Part shown: in pieces, positions 3,229 to 64,000 of the stretch
Layout: every line of letters starts with the position of its first letter
How positions within the stretch are numbered: position 1 is the first letter of the stretch
Assembly: GCA_964411375.1 (NCBI GenBank)
Contig: CAYPKR010000003.1
Span: 7,237-71,236 of the forward strand
Source: an uncultured Candidatus Saccharibacteria bacterium
GTDB taxonomy: Bacteria; Patescibacteriota; Minisyncoccia; Phycocordibacterales; UBA12088
DNA: 64,000 nt
Direction: 5' to 3'
Made by a program: the position numbers and the translations under genes
The notes under the pieces: generated by a model
Database searches by the model: none
Told to the model about the DNA's origin: nothing
Seen by the model: only the letters and a program-made list of their open reading frames with translations

Positions 3229-4503
3229 ATGGAAAAAATTCACCTAATCGGAATCGGCGGCATCGGTATGAGTGCGCTCGCACAGCTCTATGCCAAAGAG
3301 GGAAAGTTGGTTACGGGGTCTGATCGTGATCCGTCTCCAGCGGTACATGACCTCCTTCTCAAAAAAGGAATACAAGTATATGTCGGTCACCGCGCGGAGA
3401 ATGTCCCCGAGAATGCTAATCTCGTCATTTATTCTGACGCTGTTCCTGAAGATAATCCGGAGCGTGCGCGTGCGCGGGAACTCGGTATTTTGGAACAAAT
3501 GTATTTTGAAGCGCTCGGAGATGTTACCAAGGGTAGAAAGACAATCGCGATTGCGGGAACGCACGGAAAAACAACAACAACTGGAATGCTTACTAAAATC
3601 TTGATTGATGCAGGAGCAAATCCGACTGCGATTGTCGGTTCCATCGTCAAAGATTTTGAATCAAACTTCGTCGCCGGCTCGCCCGATCTTTTTGTTGTCG
3701 AAGCATGCGAATGGCGCGGGCACTTTTTGAATCTGTCACCATTTATTTTAGTTGTTACGAATATCGAATGGGATCACACGGATTTTTATCCAAATCTTCA
3801 GGCAGTCCAAAAAACATTTCGAGAGCTCATGGAACGAGTTCCAAAAGACGGTGCGATTGTGACTGACATGACTCATCAAAATATCGCGCCACTTCTTGTT
3901 GGACTTTCTTGTCGTGTGATTGATTACAAAACACTCACGGAAATCAAGACACCGCTTCTTGGTGAGTTTAATCAAGATAATGCACGTGCTGCGGCAGGAG
4001 GAGTGAACGCATTTTTGCCTGAAACCCAACTACGTGACATCAACACATCTCTCAAAAATTTTCACGGCACATGGCGACGTTTTGAATATAAAGGAAAAAC
4101 AGAAAACGGCGCCGAAGTGTGGGACGACTACGCACATCACCCAACTGCAGTTGCGGTAACACTGAAGGCCGCGCGGGAAAAATTTCCCGATACCAAAATC
4201 ACTGTCGCATTCCATCCACACTTGTACTCGAGAACGAAAGACTTATTGCCTGAATTCACCAATGCATTTACGGATGCCGATCATATTATCATTGCGCCGA
4301 TCTATGCCGCGCGTGAGGTTTCGGACGGTACAATCTCAAACCACATTCTCGCCGAAGCAATTGCTAAAACAGGGAAGGACGTCGTCGCGTTCGATTCGTT
4401 TGATTCAATTGAAGAAAAACTACGCACGCTTCCCGAGGGAAGCCTCATCATTACCATGGGCGCAGGAGATATCTATAAAGTCGGGGAGAGGTTACTTGGC
4501 TGA
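3229..4503 (+). CDS. murC: UDP-N-acetylmuramate--L-alanine ligase
   Basis: IHLIGIGGIGMSALA N-terminus, AIAGTHGKTTTTGM P-loop, length 424 aa. Confidence 0.85.
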   Translation: MEKIHLIGIGGIGMSALAQLYAKEGKLVTGSDRDPSPAVHDLLLKKGIQVYVGHRAENVPENANLVIYSDAVPEDNPERARARELGILEQMYFEALGDVTKGRKTIAIAGTHGKTTTTGMLTKILIDAGANPTAIVGSIVKDFESNFVAGSPDLFVVEACEWRGHFLNLSPFILVVTNIEWDHTDFYPNLQAVQKTFRELMERVPKDGAIVTDMTHQNIAPLLVGLSCRVIDYKTLTEIKTPLLGEFNQDNARAAAGGVNAFLPETQLRDINTSLKNFHGTWRRFEYKGKTENGAEVWDDYAHHPTAVAVTLKAAREKFPDTKITVAFHPHLYSRTKDLLPEFTNAFTDADHIIIAPIYAAREVSDGTISNHILAEAIAKTGKDVVAFDSFDSIEEKLRTLPEGSLIITMGAGDIYKVGERLLG

Positions 4504-6297
4504 TTCTCCGCTACACTGCTGCCTTGCGAGTTCGATCGGTTGAATCGGCGCGGTTGTATAATCGGGCAGCGTTTCTTCCAAGTAAAAGGTCATATTTGTT
4601 TGGATTAATTTTTCTCCGTCTTTGTGATGATCGTTCCAATCGCGGCAGAGATACGCGAGATAGTAATATCGAAGCGTCGAGAAATCGGCCGACCAGAGAT
4701 TCATCAGGTATTTCCGCCACCGCTCATCCGGATAGAGCGCGGAAACATTTTCTGGCTTTTCGATGGTTGGAATCTTCCATCCTGGATTTGCAAGATTTAC
4801 GCTCGCGCCATTTTGCTCAATCCCAGTAATCGCGTACCATCCATCATCTTTGAGAGGATACGGCGCAAACATATTCCACATCTGATCGAGTCCAAGTCCG
4901 CGCATCCATGTGTAATACGCGATTGGATAATTGAGACGAAAACGCGCGGACGGAATATTTGAATAATTCCAAGCTGATACTGCCACAATATATGAAAGCG
5001 CGAGGATAGTGGAGACAGTCCAGAGTAATTTGCAGATGATTTCTGGAAGCATCCATTTTGGTTTATCCGGCAGACATACGCGCTTGCGATGATCGGCGAT
5101 GAATCGATACACATGCTCGCCAATTGGTCTAAACATCGAAAGATTAAAAATCGGTGCAATCCAGTAGAGAAGTGGGGAAGCCGCAAGAAGCGCAATACCA
5201 GCGCCGTATGAAAAATGATGTGCGCCACCTTTGGTCACAATAACCCACGAATCCTTCGCTTCCATTTCTTTCAGTATCTCGGGATTTGTTTGTGCTGGCA
5301 GAATTTCGGTCTTCGGCAAAATCAAAAAGGTGCGGATCAGATGCGATGATTTTTTACAGAAGCCGCAATCGCCGTCGTAGTAGATTGTGAGGTTACCAAA
5401 GTGAGTGCTTGCCCAGCGTTCAACCGAATCCCAAAGTCTTGTGGTGAGGAATGCCGATACACCGGTCATTGAAATCCACGAAAATGGACCGAGGTTCATA
5501 TGGAGCGCAAAAGAGAAATGCATTACTAGAAGTCCAAATGTTGCAATTGAACGAGTGAGGAAGGTGAATACCGGACTAAAGAGGAGAAAGAATACTGACG
5601 CCTGAAGTGTCGTTACGCCAAACGTCAGAAACATCATGAATGCAGGAAACTGTCTGGTGAATTCTCCAATCGGCGTTGAAAATTGATCGAGCGAAAGCGC
5701 ATAATAGACCGCCGTTCCGTTGGTCGTCCATTCCACGCCAGTTTTAAGAAGAACTGCAGAGAAATATACAAACGATACTTGGAAGAGAAATGCTGCACTC
5801 CATGCGGAGAGAAAACGCTTTGGTACTTCTCTTCCGTATCGAAGCGCGGCGTCAACTGAAAACGCGCGTCCCCACGGCAAAAACATACCGATAAATAAAT
5901 AAACGCGAAGCATAATATCGCCGCCTTGAAGGATGATTGGATTGAGGAGTTGCATTATAAAAACCGCGAGCCATACGAATACCGACGCCACTCGCGTTTT
6001 CCAACCGATGAGGAGAAATACTGCCGCCACGATTCCAATCAGGAGCACAACAAGCGGAAGCGCCGGAAATTTGTCCATGAGATTGAAGAGCTCCGGATGC
6101 GGCGTGGTCCACACTCCAGAGTGAATGAGGCTGCTTGGAAAGACGCCGCCGTTTCCATAATGAGCGGTCAGATTGGCAAGACGCTCAAAGATAAAGTCGT
6201 ACAGGACAATGAGCGAAAAGCCGACACGCATGAGCGCGAGCGAGCGAACATCAATACCGAATAGCTCGTTGATCTTCGCCGAAATACGATTTTTCAT
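4492..6297 (-). CDS. HTTM (vitamin K-dependent gamma-carboxylase-like transmembrane) domain protein fused to DCC1-like thiol-disulfide oxidoreductase (DUF393) and a C-terminal domain
   Basis: N-terminal polytopic HTTM-like region; central YYDGDCGFCKKS motif diagnostic of DCC/DUF393 family; 601 aa; converges on murC with 12-bp overlap. Confidence 0.7.
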   Translation of the reverse strand: MKNRISAKINELFGIDVRSLALMRVGFSLIVLYDFIFERLANLTAHYGNGGVFPSSLIHSGVWTTPHPELFNLMDKFPALPLVVLLIGIVAAVFLLIGWKTRVASVFVWLAVFIMQLLNPIILQGGDIMLRVYLFIGMFLPWGRAFSVDAALRYGREVPKRFLSAWSAAFLFQVSFVYFSAVLLKTGVEWTTNGTAVYYALSLDQFSTPIGEFTRQFPAFMMFLTFGVTTLQASVFFLLFSPVFTFLTRSIATFGLLVMHFSFALHMNLGPFSWISMTGVSAFLTTRLWDSVERWASTHFGNLTIYYDGDCGFCKKSSHLIRTFLILPKTEILPAQTNPEILKEMEAKDSWVIVTKGGAHHFSYGAGIALLAASPLLYWIAPIFNLSMFRPIGEHVYRFIADHRKRVCLPDKPKWMLPEIICKLLWTVSTILALSYIVAVSAWNYSNIPSARFRLNYPIAYYTWMRGLGLDQMWNMFAPYPLKDDGWYAITGIEQNGASVNLANPGWKIPTIEKPENVSALYPDERWRKYLMNLWSADFSTLRYYYLAYLCRDWNDHHKDGEKLIQTNMTFYLEETLPDYTTAPIQPIELARQQCSGESAK

Positions 6298-6439
6298 TGG
6301 TAGTATTTTACCATGATAAAGTCGTACAGGACAATGAGCGAAAAGCCGACACGCATGAGCGCGAGCGAGCGAACATCAATACCGAATAGCTCGTTGATCT
6401 TCGCCGAAATACGATTTTTCATTGGTAGTATTTTACCAT
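6190..6439. repeat. perfect tandem duplication, 2 x 125 bp (6190-6314 and 6315-6439)
   Basis: identical 125-bp units seen directly; unit contains start codon plus first 36 codons of the HTTM gene and its upstream leader, so second copy creates a 74-aa pseudo-ORF (6294..6518, minus). Confidence 0.9.
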
Positions 6440-6487
6440 CCGAGCATATTTTCGGACTATAGGGCGGCATGGTATGGTTCGGAGGAT

Positions 6488-7168
6488 ATGGGAACATTAT
6501 CCGTCGTCGCAACGCCAATCGGTAACCTCGAAGATATGACGCTTCGAGCCATTCGCATCCTCAAAGAAGCGGACATTATTCTCTGCGAAGACACTCGAGT
6601 GACCAAGCGTCTCCTTTTTCACTACCAGATTGAGACGTCGACCATGAGCTACCACGAACATTCGGGCAAAATGAAGGTAGAAAAAATTGCCGATATGTTG
6701 GAGGAAGGGAAGAAAATCGCTCTGGTCTCTGACGCGGGAACGCCGGGCGTTTCTGATCCAGGAAGCTACTTGATCCAAGAACTCCGCTCAAAACTTGGCG
6801 ACGATCTAAGCGTTGAAACCATTCCCGGTCCTTCGGCGCTAACCTCTGCCATTGCGATTGCAGGGATCGACGCTGATGCGTTTGTATTCCTTGGATTTCT
6901 CCCGCACAAAAAGGGACGAGAGACGATGTTTGGAGAGATTGCGGAGACTTTGCGTGCCGTTATTTTTTACGAATCCCCACATCGGATCCTCCGGACACTC
7001 GAATCGCTCTCACGGCACATTGGCGAGCGCCAAATGCGTATCTGTCGCGAACTCACCAAGATTCACGAAGAGGTGTTGTCCGGTTCGGCATCCTCACTTC
7101 TCGACCAATTGAACGAAAAACCGGAAAAAGTACGGGGCGAATTTGTAGTCATTATTAATCCACTTTAG
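6488..7168 (+). CDS. rsmI: 16S rRNA (cytidine1402-2'-O)-methyltransferase
   Basis: LSVVATPIGNLEDMTLRA and tetrapyrrole-methylase-like fold motifs (ALVSDAGTPGVSDPG); ATG 6488 preferred to upstream alternative start. Confidence 0.8.
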   Translation: MGTLSVVATPIGNLEDMTLRAIRILKEADIILCEDTRVTKRLLFHYQIETSTMSYHEHSGKMKVEKIADMLEEGKKIALVSDAGTPGVSDPGSYLIQELRSKLGDDLSVETIPGPSALTSAIAIAGIDADAFVFLGFLPHKKGRETMFGEIAETLRAVIFYESPHRILRTLESLSRHIGERQMRICRELTKIHEEVLSGSASSLLDQLNEKPEKVRGEFVVIINPL

Positions 7169-57369: not shown

Positions 57370-57387
57370 CTGGACGAAATAGGTAAT

Positions 57388-57420
57388 AAAAAGAATCTCG
57401 GCTAGCCGAGATTCTTTTTA
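57388..57420 (+). terminator. rho-independent terminator after gatB
   Basis: aaaaagaatctcggc-tag-ccgagattcttttt (stem about 13-15 bp plus T-run). Confidence 0.8.
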
Positions 57421-57712
57421 TTTAAAGGATATTTCAACGATTACTACCCTTGAGATTTAGGTACTCGCAAGACTATTAATGTCGAATTCCATGCCCTGCT
57501 CCCCTGTTTTACGACCCAGGATCTAGATGGTCGGGAAAGATAATGTATTTAAAAATAGAAAGCTAAATTAGCTCCGATTCGGAAGACTAGGGAACTCAAA
57601 CCTAAAACGACCAGCAATTAATTCTTTAAAGGGTTACTGATTTCTACTTGACCACAGATTTTTAATAAAATCGGCTAGCTCGATTTAACTAGTCTCGTGT
57701 AGAATAGCAGTA

Positions 57713-58546
57713 ATGGACGAACTCATAATTGGAGGAAAACAATATATCTCGTCAAGGCGAGCGGCTGAAATAACCGGCTATGCAAAAGACTATATCGGTC
57801 AACTTTGTCGGGGGAAACGTATCGAAGGGAAATTAGTCGGTCGTAATTGGTACGTTGAGCCGAGATCCCTACTCCATCTATCGGCAAAGAAAGGCAACAA
57901 CTCGCTTAGCGGAGATCAAGGCATCTCTCGTAGAGAAGAGGCTTCAAAAGGAGCAGAAATTCTCGCTGAGAGCACATTCGCGTATGAACCAGAAAATGTA
58001 GCATACGAAAACGACGAGTCTCCCTTAGTTCCTGTACTGAAAATAGCAAGGAAAGAAAGTGTGCAAGCTCAGGTCACTTCTACAGACACAGCTCTGGAGT
58101 CAGAAGAATTACCCAGTAACATAGCAATCGATTCTGCCGAGCAAAGGGAGTCTATTGATGAGCCTGTAAAGGTACGCAAGGTTTCAGTTAAGCCATCGGC
58201 TAATGCTGTCGATTTACGCATAATGGGACTTATAAGCGATACCAAGCGAAGGAAGCAAGAGACAGCGGAAAGAGTAGAGAGTCGCGCAGAGACAGAATTA
58301 CAAGCAGTTGAGAAGGTAGTTCAGCCTAAGGTCATAAAGAAGCGGGGGGTCTTTGTCCCAAAGCTATCTCTCGTTCCAGCCCTAAAATTTGCAGTAGTAA
58401 CAGCCAGTCTAATGTTTATACTAGGATCTGTTACAGACAGGACTCACGTTTACCCGAGTGGCAACAATCAGTACTCTATTTCTAGCGCTGCAAGCCTGAC
58501 TGCATCTGTCGAAGAGGGGATTAAAAATCTCGTTAAAACGAGATAA
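57713..58546 (+). CDS. membrane-anchored protein with N-terminal excisionase/MerR-like HTH_17 DNA-binding domain, charged linker and C-terminal TM helix
   Basis: YISSRRAAEITGYAKDYIGQLCRGKRIEGKLVGRNWYVEPRSL fits HTH_17 pattern (AAE..G.S...IY.L...G.L.A.KIGR.W.I...DLE.FL); TM at about aa 225-245. Confidence 0.6.
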   Translation: MDELIIGGKQYISSRRAAEITGYAKDYIGQLCRGKRIEGKLVGRNWYVEPRSLLHLSAKKGNNSLSGDQGISRREEASKGAEILAESTFAYEPENVAYENDESPLVPVLKIARKESVQAQVTSTDTALESEELPSNIAIDSAEQRESIDEPVKVRKVSVKPSANAVDLRIMGLISDTKRRKQETAERVESRAETELQAVEKVVQPKVIKKRGVFVPKLSLVPALKFAVVTASLMFILGSVTDRTHVYPSGNNQYSISSAASLTASVEEGIKNLVKTR

Positions 58547-58874
58547 TCTTATTTTAAAGCAAATAATGGGTACAAAAAGATTCCGTATCGCGGAGTCTTT
58601 TTTCTTGCATTAGGAATATTTGGGCTAGAAAGGAGGTAAATAAATATTTAGTCGGTGTTAGTAATCGAGGTAACCTATCCTCAGGAGGACAGAGGTTTGA
58701 TTCGAATGGATTCGTCGGATCATCGGAAAGTAAGGAATAGCGACTAGATGGGTGAGTCACTTCAAATTTCTTAAGATCTATCTTGTAGATAGAGGCGGTT
58801 GTTGCTGGAATCAGTCACAGATATTTGGAAGTAAGAATATCTATAATACGTTTTAAAATAAGATTATCTCGTTT
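58535..58874. repeat. 24-bp perfect inverted repeats (58535-58558 aaaacgagataatcttattttaaa / 58851-58874) flanking a 292-bp segment; candidate invertible promoter switch or MITE-like element
   Basis: IRs seen directly; left IR overlaps the stop codon of the upstream gene; consensus TATAAT at 58841-58846 oriented toward downstream genes lies just inside the right IR. Confidence 0.6.
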
Positions 58875-59102
58875 TGCCGAGATATATTTTTAAGCTAAAT
58901 AATTTTAAATAACCTATAACCGCCTTCAAATAATTTTTTGAGTCAATGCGAGTAAAATACCGTGGAAGCGATCCAATTGAGTCAAAAATCGATCTCAATA
59001 GGGAAATAAAGGCTAGATTTTGCTATTTTGAGGGGTTTTAGATCGGAAAGTTTCATTATTTCTATCCAAAATATTCTTTCTATCTTGATATATAGCCATC
59101 TT

Positions 59103-59868
59103 TTTTATTTTAAGAAAAAATAACCTCAAAAAAGATTCGTTGGAAGCTAAAAAAGTAACGAAAAAATCGAACCATCCGAGATTTTAGATTTGTTGAAAAA
59201 CCTAGTGATTCCGGATATCAAAGAAAGTCGATTTTATCCACAGAAATAGTTAGGTCGATGTCGATTTTATCTTGTAAAATATAAGTAATTCGTTCAAACG
59301 GATTAGCCATGAGCACTGTTCTTTTATTCGAAAATAGGGAATACATCGCATCTCGCGATGCAGCGCTCGATTCCGGGTATTCGCTTGATTACATTTCAAA
59401 ACTTTGTCGTTCAAAAAAATTGAACGCAAAGTTGATCGGAAAAAGTTGGTTTGTTGAAAAAGATTCGCTCGAACTTTTTCTTCAATTTTATTTTAAGAAA
59501 AAATAACCTCAAAAAAGATTCGTTGGAAGCTAAAAAAGTAACGAAAAAATCGAACCATCCGAGATTTTAGATTTGTTGAAAAACCTAGTGATTCCGGATA
59601 TCAAAGAAAGTCGATTTTATCCACAGAAATAGTTAGGTCGATGTCGATTTTATCTTGTAAAATATAAGTAATTCGTTCAAACGGATTAGCCATGAGCACT
59701 GTTCTTTTATTCGAAAATAGGGAATACATCGCATCTCGCGATGCAGCGCTCGATTCCGGGTATTCGCTTGATTACATTTCAAAACTTTGTCGTTCAAAAA
59801 AATTGAACGCAAAGTTGATCGGAAAAAGTTGGTTTGTTGAAAAAGATTCGCTCGAACTTTTTCTTCAA
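59103..59868. repeat. perfect tandem duplication, 2 x 383 bp (59103-59485 and 59486-59868)
   Basis: units identical on inspection; each contains promoter-like region, direct repeats GTCGATTTTATC x2, and first 59 codons of the HTH_17 gene. Confidence 0.9.
59309..59506 (+). pseudogene. truncated duplicate (65 aa) of N-terminal HTH_17 domain created by the 383-bp tandem duplication
   Basis: first 59 aa identical to gene 59692-60789, then 6 aa read into next repeat unit and stop. Confidence 0.5.
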
Positions 59869-60789
59869 TCACAAGAAAGAATCAAAATTGAAAATCAGAA
59901 GCGCCTTTCGCGTGAACGCCGCTCTGATTACCGCACCATTCGACTTCAGGAGAGTGTGGTCAAACTTCGAGAGAACATTTCAGAAACTGCATCGAATTCT
60001 GCCAAGGGAATTTTTTCACGTTTCCCTGCAATCGCCTCTACCCTCACTCTCGCAGTACTTCTCTATGCAGTCGTAAGCGGTACTATATCGATTTCGAACA
60101 TTTCAAATCGTGCACAGTCGGCACTTGCTGATGCGGCAAATACCATTGGTTTTATCGGTGATCTTGCGAGTCAAAATCAAACTGCATGGAATGCATTTAA
60201 TGCAAATATGCAGACTGCAATGATCGGTGTTTCAGAAGCGACAACTGATTTGCAAAAAAATATTGGATTTTTTGTAAACGAGATGAATCACGAGACAATG
60301 GTTAGTCACCGAGCAATTGGAGCATCAGCAAATACTGCAATCAGTGCGCTTACTACTACGGGTAAAAATATCGGATCGAACATCTACGCAGTGTTGCTTA
60401 CTCTCCATGACACTGCAATCGTATACGTGAATGGGCTCTGGGGTCACATGGCATTTGTCGCACCACAATCTCGAGAAATTTCTGAAGCACCAAAATCGAA
60501 TACGAACACAAATACAAACACGCCGACAACTGAAGATTCTGGCTCGCCGCAAGGAATGGTTGTGGTCCCATCGAACGGAACACCGAGTGCAGATGCCGAA
60601 CAAATTTCAAGAATTCAAAAGACGTTCTCTGACAAAGTTTCTGTGATACCGGCAGAAGACGGAGAAAGCGGAATTATTAGACCTGAATTTAAAGACACGA
60701 AAGGCAGTGATTATGTCTACGTGCTCGTTCCTGTTGGCGGCGGCGAACAAAATTCAGGAAGCGTAAATACTGGCGGTACGAAGCCATAA
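59692..60789 (+). CDS. membrane-anchored protein with N-terminal HTH_17 DNA-binding domain, one TM helix and about 230-aa extracytoplasmic C-terminal domain
   Basis: EYIASRDAALDSGYSLDYISKLCRSKKLNAKLIGKSWFVEKDSLELFL (HTH_17-like); TM FPAIASTLTLAVLLYAVVSG; paralogous N-domain to 57713-58546. Confidence 0.65.
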   Translation: MSTVLLFENREYIASRDAALDSGYSLDYISKLCRSKKLNAKLIGKSWFVEKDSLELFLQSQERIKIENQKRLSRERRSDYRTIRLQESVVKLRENISETASNSAKGIFSRFPAIASTLTLAVLLYAVVSGTISISNISNRAQSALADAANTIGFIGDLASQNQTAWNAFNANMQTAMIGVSEATTDLQKNIGFFVNEMNHETMVSHRAIGASANTAISALTTTGKNIGSNIYAVLLTLHDTAIVYVNGLWGHMAFVAPQSREISEAPKSNTNTNTNTPTTEDSGSPQGMVVVPSNGTPSADAEQISRIQKTFSDKVSVIPAEDGESGIIRPEFKDTKGSDYVYVLVPVGGGEQNSGSVNTGGTKP

Positions 60790-60806
60790 TTTTTGTTTGT
60801 TCCTGG

Positions 60807-60846
60807 TTTCCCACCACTTCTCTGGACGTGCGGTGGTGGGAAACTG
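60807..60846 (+). terminator. 11-bp hairpin tttcccaccac-(15 nt loop)-gtggtgggaaa after HTH_17 gene (no U-tract)
   Basis: seen in sequence. Confidence 0.3.
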
Positions 60847-60878
60847 GGCGGAAACGCACGGTACTAGGTCGAAAAAAT

Positions 60879-61817
60879 ATGTTCACACTGAATTCATCAC
60901 AACAGAAAAAAATTGCAGGAATTGCTCTTGGAGCACTTTCGATTTTCTTGGTGAATGGACTTAGTGCAATCGCAGCAGCACCGGAAGGCGCATTCATGGT
61001 GACACCGGCGAAAGTGGAAATCGACATCAATCCGGGAGAGACGGTGAGTCGAGACATCACGATCGAAAACAATACGGGAAGTGAAACAACATTTACGATG
61101 ACCGCAGAAAATATTTCAGGAACTCACAGTGGGAGTGAGACCGTCGTATTTTCAAATGCAACTGACACAGCATCATCGCTCAAAGAAAATATTTCGTTTG
61201 AAAAAAATACATTCACGATTGCAAACGGAGGAAAAATTTCACTTCCTGTTACGATCACCATTCCGCAAAACGCAGAACCATCGGGACGCTACGCGGCAGT
61301 GTTAGTTAAAGCGATTCCATCTGGATCAGCGAGCGGCGCATCAGTTGCATCGCAAATCGGCGTACTCTTTTTCGTACGCGTCGCAGGAGACACTGGTGCA
61401 AACGCAACGCTCAAAAAATTCGGGACAAAAAATGATGCATATCTGTTTGCAAATGCTGACGTGCCATTTCGAGTGACGTTTGAAAATACCGGAAACGTAC
61501 ACGTAAATCCGTATGGAAAAATCTGGATTCGAAATATGCTCGGACAAAAAGTTGGAGAAATTATTCTCGACCCATGGTTCGTGCTTCCAAATTCAGTACG
61601 CACACGTGACGCTGAGTGGAAAATGTCTGGCGCATTCGGCGTATACCGCGCAGTACTTGAAGTGAATCGCGGATACGAAAATATTGTTGAAAGCGCATCG
61701 GTCTCGTTTGTCGTGTTGCCGTGGTATGTTCTGCCAACCTTGCTTATTTTCCTCGGTGCAATTGTGTGGGTTCTGTCAGTTCGACAAGCACGCAAAAAAA
61801 CAGAGCAAACAATATGA
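60879..61817 (+). CDS. secreted cell-surface protein with signal peptide and C-terminal TM anchor + basic tail (DUF916/DUF3324-like architecture)
   Basis: N-terminal signal (IAGIALGALSIFLVNGLSAIAAA), C-terminal WYVLPTLLIFLGAIVWVLSVRQARKK; ATG 60879 preferred over upstream GTG. Confidence 0.5.
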   Translation: MFTLNSSQQKKIAGIALGALSIFLVNGLSAIAAAPEGAFMVTPAKVEIDINPGETVSRDITIENNTGSETTFTMTAENISGTHSGSETVVFSNATDTASSLKENISFEKNTFTIANGGKISLPVTITIPQNAEPSGRYAAVLVKAIPSGSASGASVASQIGVLFFVRVAGDTGANATLKKFGTKNDAYLFANADVPFRVTFENTGNVHVNPYGKIWIRNMLGQKVGEIILDPWFVLPNSVRTRDAEWKMSGAFGVYRAVLEVNRGYENIVESASVSFVVLPWYVLPTLLIFLGAIVWVLSVRQARKKTEQTI

Positions 61818-62560
61818 CGACTCGCAGAGTAAAAATCGCAGTCATGTTTGTACTTGGACTCGCACTCACTGCATCAGCAGACACCATGCAAAGTAGTAAC
61901 TATCGAATTCAGCAAGACAGCATGAACGCTGGTGGCGTTCGCTCAACTTCAGGAACCTACTCGATGGAAGATACCGTTGGCGAACAAGCAACTGGCTATT
62001 CAGGTAGCGCTTCGTACAACCTCAAAGCGGGATATCAGCAGATGGATAGCGTCGGATTAGCCCTGACTGGAGCCGCAAATGTGACGCTCTTGCCTGCACT
62101 TCAGACAACCGGCGGAGGAACTTCAACTGGTTCATTGCCACTTACTGCAACAACCGATAACACCACTGGCTACCAGATGTCGATCAAGGTTTCGAACAAT
62201 CCAGCGATGCAGTCGAATTCAGCATCGATTCCGAACTATGCACCAGTTGGGGCAGACCCTGATTTCGAATTCATTACACCAGTTGCCGCTGCAGCATTCG
62301 CTTTTTCTCCGGAGGGAACAGAGATTGTACAGAAATACAAAGATGACGGCACTGCATGCAATATCGGTACATTCGATACGACTGGCGCTTGTTGGAATTT
62401 GCTTTCAACGATTGACGATGTCATTGCAACGCGCGGAACGGCAAACAATCCTTTGGGAACAGTGACAACACTTAAATTCCAAGTTGCGGCAGATGCAGCG
62501 ACAACGCTTTCGGCCGGATCGTACATTGCAACAACTACCGTGACACTGATCGCACTCTAA
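61814..62560 (+). CDS. secreted Thr/Ser/Gly-rich beta-rich protein with signal peptide (WxL-like? single CWNL motif)
   Basis: signal peptide MTTRRVKIAVMFVLGLALTASA; start overlaps previous stop (ATGA). Confidence 0.55.
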   Translation: MTTRRVKIAVMFVLGLALTASADTMQSSNYRIQQDSMNAGGVRSTSGTYSMEDTVGEQATGYSGSASYNLKAGYQQMDSVGLALTGAANVTLLPALQTTGGGTSTGSLPLTATTDNTTGYQMSIKVSNNPAMQSNSASIPNYAPVGADPDFEFITPVAAAAFAFSPEGTEIVQKYKDDGTACNIGTFDTTGACWNLLSTIDDVIATRGTANNPLGTVTTLKFQVAADAATTLSAGSYIATTTVTLIAL

Positions 62561-63914: not shown

Positions 63915-64000
63915 ATGTACGTTTCGACGACAATCTCATTTTTGAAAAAGATACTTGCAGGCGCGGGCATGTTGCTCTTGCTTGCGTTGCCACTTCTTTC
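63915..64000 (+). CDS. 5' end of another secreted/membrane protein (partial, runs off window)
   Basis: MYVSTTISFLKKILAGAGMLLLLALPLL signal-peptide-like start. Confidence 0.3.
   Translation, partial: MYVSTTISFLKKILAGAGMLLLLALPLL

Follow-up and report, generated by a model that had tools for sequence, protein, structure and literature searches.

Short tandem duplications of the spontaneous kind in bacteria are reportedly formed by illegitimate joining and are said to be RecA-unstable. Perfect repeats, once present, reportedly serve as substrates for homologous recombination. Such duplications consist of identical copies arranged head to tail, with one novel junction and 0–1 nt of microhomology. 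The locus described here has these same traits, and it resembles them further in having single-copy relatives, in its expected instability, and in a placement that spares the gene. It differs from them in that the duplication is found at assembly-level frequency in an uncultured Saccharibacteria population, and in that two such duplications lie within 64 kb. A related comparison is with promoter-duplication up-mutations and tandem promoters. Here too there are two copies of the complete conserved upstream block, both facing the same way and with no predicted terminator separating them; the difference is that a 65-aa ORF sits between the two putative promoters.

The product of the duplicated gene also has described counterparts. 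ToxR, CadC and TcpP have a cytoplasmic N-terminal DNA-binding domain, a single transmembrane (TM) segment and a C-terminal domain on the outside, and they are encoded beside surface-structure genes, all of which is the predicted arrangement here. Their DNA-binding domain is of the OmpR type, whereas that of the present 365-aa protein appears to be of the excisionase/MerR type. Xis and BldC bind direct repeats head to tail, and the duplicated promoter has two direct repeats 33 nt apart. With Xis (4J2N), BldC (6AMA) and RdfS (8DGL), the 65-aa product shares its size class and predicted fold, sequence identity being 9–26%; these three are evolved genes, whereas the 65-aa product is a truncation with a 6-residue foreign tail.

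The Pam pilus of CPR bacteria has recently been described (Troman et al., bioRxiv 10.64898/2026.03.03.709456). The operon downstream of the duplicated gene resembles the Pam operon in its Saccharibacteria host, in its predicted secreted Ig-like and FnIII proteins with a C-terminal TM segment, in a weak match to PamT, and in the adjacent fibre-like protein. It differs in that its PamT score is far under the cutoff, and an HTH protein is mentioned nowhere in the preprint (0 occurrences; 10.64898/2026.03.03.709456).

The window, that is, the whole 64-kb stretch of DNA that was analysed, contains a perfect 383-bp tandem duplication, duplication 1, across the 5′ end of a gene for a protein with a helix-turn-helix (HTH) domain and a TM segment. 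In our judgement this is probably a genuine, evolutionarily recent, gene-sparing tandem duplication in the Candidatus Saccharibacteria population of sequencing run SRR12487045. Duplication 1 is an ordinary structural variant of an already known kind. The features of the locus are as follows.

57713..58546, + strand: HTH-TM paralogue of 277 aa with its TM at 218-241, a conserved neighbour that precedes the duplicated gene
59103..59485, + strand: duplication 1 copy 1, 383 bp, 100% identical to copy 2; boundary ambiguity 1 nt (T)
59227..59271, + strand: GTCGATTTTATC direct-repeat pair, copy 1; candidate operator
59271..59305, + strand: 35-nt block CTTGTAAAATATAAGTAATTCGTTCAAACGGATTA, copy 1, stopping 4 nt short of the ATG; presumed core promoter / 5′ UTR
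59309..59506, + strand: truncated ORF, 65 aa, with the winged-HTH core (residues 1-50) complete plus 9 residues of the long helix
59478..59506, + strand: novel junction TTCTTCAA|TTTTATTTT, together with six non-native codons (FYFKKK) and TAA
59486..59868, + strand: duplication 1 copy 2, 383 bp, running on into the remainder of the intact gene
59610..59654, + strand: GTCGATTTTATC direct-repeat pair, copy 2
59654-59688, + strand: 35-nt block CTTGTAAAATATAAGTAATTCGTTCAAACGGATTA, copy 2
59692..60789, + strand: intact gene, 365 aa; winged HTH, long helix, TM 110-138, helical outside region and C-terminal conserved block of ~70 aa
60879..63905, + strand: Pam-like CPR pilus genes, encoding a 312-aa Ig-like, a 248-aa PamT-like and a 446-aa FnIII protein
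61814-62560, + strand: PamT-like protein, 248 aa

In the window, Tandem Repeats Finder reports 59103-59869 with period 383, 2.0 copies, 100% matches, 0 indels and a score of 1534. Base-by-base extension gives an identity run of 384 nt, that is, 383-bp units plus one ambiguous T, and microhomology at the junction is 1 nt only. Each unit combines 206 nt of upstream sequence with exactly 59 codons, and none of its 30-mers occurs a third time in the window on either strand. A perfect 383-bp repeat cannot be of chance origin. Read-through of the junction produces the 65-aa ORF, which has 59 native residues, FYFKKK and a stop, is without a TM anchor, and is annotated as a CDS in the NCBI record (P0010). 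The first-pass annotation of this DNA had claimed a perfect head-to-tail 383-bp duplication of an upstream region and the first 59 codons of a membrane-protein gene, giving ORFs of 65 and 365 aa. Its coordinates are exact to the base by both methods, its unit and ORFs are as described, and the membrane protein has one TM helix, at residues 110-138.

A further perfect tandem duplication in the window was overlooked in that annotation, and it alters the interpretation of duplication 1.

6190..6439, - strand: duplication 2, perfect 2 x 125 bp, 0 nt of microhomology
4492-6297, - strand: gene for a 601-aa DCC1-like membrane protein

In duplication 2 the unit takes in the 601-aa protein gene's first 36 codons, preceded by 17 nt of upstream sequence. 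It yields a truncated ORF of 42 aa, the TGA of which overlaps the ATG of the intact copy (ATGA). Thus each duplication spans the 5′ end of a gene and spares the intact gene. Under random placement, a 125-bp segment would fall inside a gene in 82% of cases and a 383-bp segment in 60%; the probability is ~0.07 that both are non-disruptive and ~0.03 that both lie across a 5′ end, as judged with a crude ORF-based gene model (93% coding) and n = 2 events. At n = 2, this placement speaks for real mutations that passed through selection rather than for artefacts blind to position. A stable bacterial genome would be expected to carry fewer than two perfect duplications in 64 kb.

Whether a perfect repeat in a deposited contig is real can be asked of Logan, an independent per-run assembly of public reads, from which run SRR12487045 was used. 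Logan is assembled at k=31, k-mers seen once are discarded, and every 31-mer is kept once (PMC12424806). Because every 31-mer is kept once, a tandem repeat longer than k breaks contigs at predictable bases. The Logan contig SRR12487045_66365 corresponds to window positions 57393-59132 and ends 30 nt (k-1) into the unit. On the other side, contig SRR12487045_133828 starts at 59840 and continues with 0 mismatches to window position 64000; its start is 30 nt before the first base that distinguishes the right flank from the junction. Contigs that end 30 nt inside the unit indicate that two contexts enter the unit and two leave it. Duplication 2 behaves in the same way: contig _193934 ends at 6219 on the left and contig _32747 starts at 6410 on the right, both as predicted. 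Positions 59840, 6219 and 6410 were forecast before look-up, and 59132 came from a simulated graph. That simulated k=31 graph of the window reproduces five of the five observed contig ends (6219, 6410, 57393, 59132 and 59840), and the same graph built from the de-duplicated window has no break at either duplication site. Contig _32747 is unbranched over 45.6 kb, most of the window, which argues against a co-occurring close strain as the cause of the four breaks.

The protein look-ups are in keeping with this picture. The intact products of both duplicated genes are absent from Logan, which does contain GatB, Obg, the paralogue and the proteins encoded downstream. Exact-product look-ups for the 365-aa product, the 65-aa product, the P0001 protein and a 226-aa RsmI call returned no match. 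For the 365-aa and 65-aa products an empty result is to be expected, because Logan cannot carry a tandem repeat; that for the 226-aa RsmI call arose because the gene callers placed the start elsewhere. Searching genome_contigs, a set of GTDB species representatives, with an exact DNA pattern taken from the 3′ breakpoint gave 0 matches, so the source genome is not one of those representatives. A literature search for SRR12487045 found nothing.

Duplication 1 is present in the raw reads, and an assembly artefact, an option left standing by the first-pass annotation, is strongly disfavoured, the k=31 assembly having broken at the four bases predicted for tandem loops. The read-level support consists of contig ends that match the loop graph, rather than of junction 31-mers or abundances. 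The graph topology is alike for two fixed copies, for a mixture of one, two and three copies, and for a minority variant in at least two reads. SRR12487045 may be the source run of the deposited contig, so the check is independent in algorithm, perhaps not in data. More generally, a suspicious perfect repeat in a MAG can be checked without reads, by forecasting the Logan k=31 breaks to the base; here five of five ends matched.

Two other origins of the graph breaks were considered and rejected. With a deletion allele, the left contig would end at 59103, not 59132. An extrachromosomal circle of 383 bp or 125 bp has an identical loop topology and is implausible, there being no recombinase sites and 125 bp being too small.

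In the closest relative, L005 (DRR274965), the locus is single-copy. DNA identity to L005 is 90% from about -120 to +240 and ~76% elsewhere, and 822 bp separate the paralogue from the gene in L005, versus 763 bp in the window minus one unit. In a second relative, L001, the sequence is continuous straight across the 3′ breakpoint. The syntenic Saccharibacteria MAG (L002/L008) likewise lacks a repeat at this locus, and no tandem repeat with a period of 40-1500 was found in any relative locus examined, including L002, L005 and L001. The left boundary of duplication 1 lies in AT-rich intergenic DNA that is not alignable even with the closest relative. The single copy in three relatives (L005, L001 and L002) marks the event as derived and recent, in agreement with the earlier proposal of a very recent event.

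The upstream region carries the candidate control elements. Exactly four exact matches to GTCGATTTTATC are present in the 64-kb window, at 59227, 59260, 59610 and 59643, that is, two per unit spaced 33 nt start to start; the chance expectation is 0.77 matches at ≤1 mismatch. The two direct repeats per unit that had been claimed earlier are thus found. In alignments, relatives have degenerate versions in equivalent positions (GTTCACTTTATC / GATCATTTTGTC), and the 35-nt CTTGTAAAATATAAGTAATTCGTTCAAACGGATTA block is 100% conserved in L005/L001. The conserved upstream region, from ~-135 to -1, is entirely within the unit, as are both direct-repeat boxes. The −10-like elements of the first-pass annotation fared less well: the hexamers TAAAAT and TATAAG in the conserved block have some resemblance, and a consensus scan found no sigma-70-type −35/−10 pair on the + strand within the unit. 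No terminator or unusually stable structure is predicted across the duplication 1 junction, and a search of JGI metagenomes with the conserved promoter pattern gave 0 matches. Since the entire conserved upstream block is inside the unit, the locus now has two complete tandem promoter regions, as presumed from conservation. Since no terminator is predicted across the junction, promoter 1 should contribute transcription on top of what promoter 2 provides.

The intact 365-aa protein consists of an HTH domain (residues 1-60), a TM segment (110-138) and 227 residues beyond it. With the HTH_17 model (PF12728) of the label given earlier, the 365-aa protein scores 20.3 bits and the 65-aa ORF 22.0 bits, under the gathering score of 27, but members of the family exceed it (29.1 bits for P0018, 29.4 for P0020, 50.9 for P0107 and 61.3 for P0101). 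The AlphaFold model, built from a 6-sequence alignment, has a mean pLDDT of 48 and is confident for residues 1-80 only, where pLDDT is 70-89 and the order is beta-beta-alpha-alpha-beta-beta, then a long helix. Structurally, it is closest to stand-alone winged-HTH proteins of the excisionase/MerR type, namely Xis of phage Pukovnik (4J2N; TM 0.72, rmsd 1.4 Å), BldC, RacA and RdfS, with weak E-values, the query being the whole low-confidence model. The N-terminal domain is thus predicted to be an excisionase/MerR-type winged HTH with the winged-helix fold. Judging from this model, a RacA-like DNA-tethering role and a putative regulator role are equally compatible with the protein.

Apart from the HTH, the C-terminal block of ~70 residues is the most conserved portion. 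No Pfam model covers this block (GMVVVP...DGESGIIRPEF...DYLYVLVP), and a PDB sequence-profile search gave only matches to coiled-coil adhesin composition. At E ≤ 1e-3, the HTH-TM family numbers 6,219 cluster representatives (clusters at 50% identity). When JGI metagenomes were scanned with a protein pattern, 230 candidates came up, 0 of them confirmed.

The duplicated gene lies immediately upstream of the same set of genes for secreted, TM-anchored Ig-like and FnIII proteins in four of the four loci with context. The HTH-TM gene pair is found elsewhere (5832-6761 and 8001-9122 in L002; 355-1194 and 2016-3119 in L005); the pair is conserved upstream of the pilus-like operon, with 0.8-1.2 kb of non-coding DNA between the two genes. 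A similar Pam-like gene set is present in L004 at 4076-6352. The 312-aa Ig-like protein has a signal peptide, a C-terminal TM segment and weak fn3_5/WxLIP_PGBD matches. The 446-aa protein has an FnIII-type domain, a signal peptide and a C-terminal TM segment, and the large fibre-like protein encoded after it has a weak Bdello_MAT_N match. No other NCBIfam family matched the 312-aa or the 446-aa protein. The segment 61721-62560 matches NCBIfam PamT with 40 bits (E = 2.8e-10), well short of the equivalog cutoff of 240. Given 40 bits versus 240, the operon is named Pam-like, not Pam.

We now weigh the other accounts of duplication 1. In an assembly, scaffolding or gap-closing artefact, single-copy reads would have been turned into a repeat through a false loop or through concatenated contig ends. 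Perfect identity and the occurrence of two such repeats in one contig do resemble merge artefacts, and the NCBI record is the sole source of the exact 365-aa, 601-aa and 65-aa products. Set against this, a single-copy k=31 graph is unbranched in simulation, yet Logan breaks at 59132, 59840, 6219 and 6410, three of these positions having been predicted before look-up. An artefact is therefore very unlikely. It is just as improbable that the 383-bp and 125-bp segments also occur with other flanks, as a dispersed repeat or in a second strain, and were mis-placed in tandem. The unit does overlap an island of conservation (the 90% identity to L005 noted above), and Logan contigs can break on k-mers shared within a community, as one probably does at ~52023. 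Such an account needs two occurrences, each mis-joined as an exact tandem, and a de Bruijn assembler cannot produce the unit-to-unit adjacency without junction k-mers. The unalignable AT-rich left boundary and the 45.6-kb unbranched contig likewise oppose a dispersed element and a co-occurring close strain, respectively.

The remaining accounts accept the duplication. One is a selected regulatory variant, which would have become more frequent because the doubled promoter/operator or the free HTH product changes how strongly the HTH-TM gene and the Pam-like operon (host-attachment machinery) are expressed. Both direct-repeat boxes and all of the conserved upstream block lie in the unit, the fragment has a complete predicted winged-HTH fold and is as large as relatives that naturally stand alone, the gene's place at the head of the operon is conserved in each of the four loci with context, and an unstable 383-bp repeat at assembly-level frequency hints at recency or selection. 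The duplication is found in no relative examined, however, and duplication 2, with its alike geometry in an unrelated gene, favours neutral survivorship; we regard selection as unlikely. Still more doubtful, and given little credence here, is the broader proposal that both duplications are the output of an active promoter-proximal duplication process in this Saccharibacteria lineage, instead of having survived from random events. Such a process would double promoters and split N-terminal domains off as mini-ORFs; here, a winged-HTH factor tethered to the membrane would become a free regulator, similar to Xis and BldC, of a Pam-type pilus operon for host attachment. Copy-number phase variation, suggested in the first-pass annotation, would make this a contingency locus with programmed switching of the gene or operon. 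Perfect tandem repeats can recombine reversibly, but the gene and full promoter are intact in the one-copy and two-copy states alike, so nothing is switched; there are only two copies, with no recurrence among relatives, no site-specific recombinase sites and no simple-sequence tract. We consider this extremely unlikely.

The preferred reading, a genuine and recent gene-sparing duplication, suggests the following course of events. Duplication 1 would have arisen through illegitimate joining, with scarcely any microhomology (1 nt). It would have persisted as harmless: the left breakpoint falls in non-conserved intergenic DNA and the right one at codon 59, so that the intact gene and its complete conserved promoter/operator region are retained. 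Placement at a 5′ end is what would be expected of duplications that survive purifying selection in a ~90% coding genome. The 383 bp of perfect homology would then permit collapse and expansion by homologous recombination, and the population is probably mixed in copy number.

As to function, two tandem promoters would feed the intact gene and probably also the downstream Pam-like pilus operon. Promoter 1 would drive the 65-aa ORF, giving a soluble, anchor-less HTH protein of the size of Xis or BldC that could occupy the four GTCGATTTTATC boxes. The earlier idea of a dominant-negative or co-regulator is structurally plausible, since the 65-aa product is predicted to retain the full winged-HTH core, with the size and fold of Xis, BldC and RdfS. 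The product lacks the outside domain as well as the TM anchor and most of the long helix. At the four boxes it might be a competitor of the full-length protein; alternatively, it might be inert. Promoter doubling and a free HTH protein are plausible consequences, as read from sequence and model, and the net effect of duplication 1 is most likely neutral to mildly regulatory.

Biologically, the consequence is a modest one: small-scale structural variation still under way in an uncultured episymbiont with a reduced genome. The duplication further draws attention to the gene that heads a conserved Pam-like pilus operon and belongs to a very large uncharacterised HTH-TM family. It is a natural variant in which a promoter region is doubled and a DNA-binding domain becomes a separate predicted product. 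If this strain or a relative is cultured, the one-copy and two-copy alleles would be a ready-made experiment on the putative regulator.

Several further elements lie in the window. A perfect 38-nt palindrome (AATAAAAAGAATCTCGGCT/AGCCGAGATTCTTTTTATT) at 57385-57422, just past gatB, resembles a bidirectional terminator, and the Logan contig start at 57393 falls in it, in agreement with the simulated graph. At ~52023 the 45.6-kb Logan contig stops within the best-conserved motif of SecA (VDEFTGR...GRRWSEGLHQAVEAKE), where the window has no repeat; this break is likely due to a 31-mer common to other community members. Neither Rfam (gathering threshold) nor ARAGORN gave a match in the window. Between the HTH-TM gene and the first pilus-like gene, at 60795-60855, there is a stem-loop of ~25 bp (GGTTTCCCACCAC...GTGGTGGGAAACTGG), with counterparts at ~3118-3185 in L005 and ~9125-9190 in L002. 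It has three compensatory pairs in three sequences and no Rfam match, and is almost invariant even where the flanking protein is only 34% identical. This element could be an operon leader/attenuator RNA or a protein-binding palindrome. A 46-nt inverted-repeat pair at 58527-58572 and 58838-58883 is 83% complementary, with a terminator-like hairpin in each arm. The arms are 88-90% conserved in L005, and the ~270 nt between them is unalignable and has no conserved ORF. The arms may be paired terminators that act in both directions, or a MITE-like element, with an unannotated small transcript in between.
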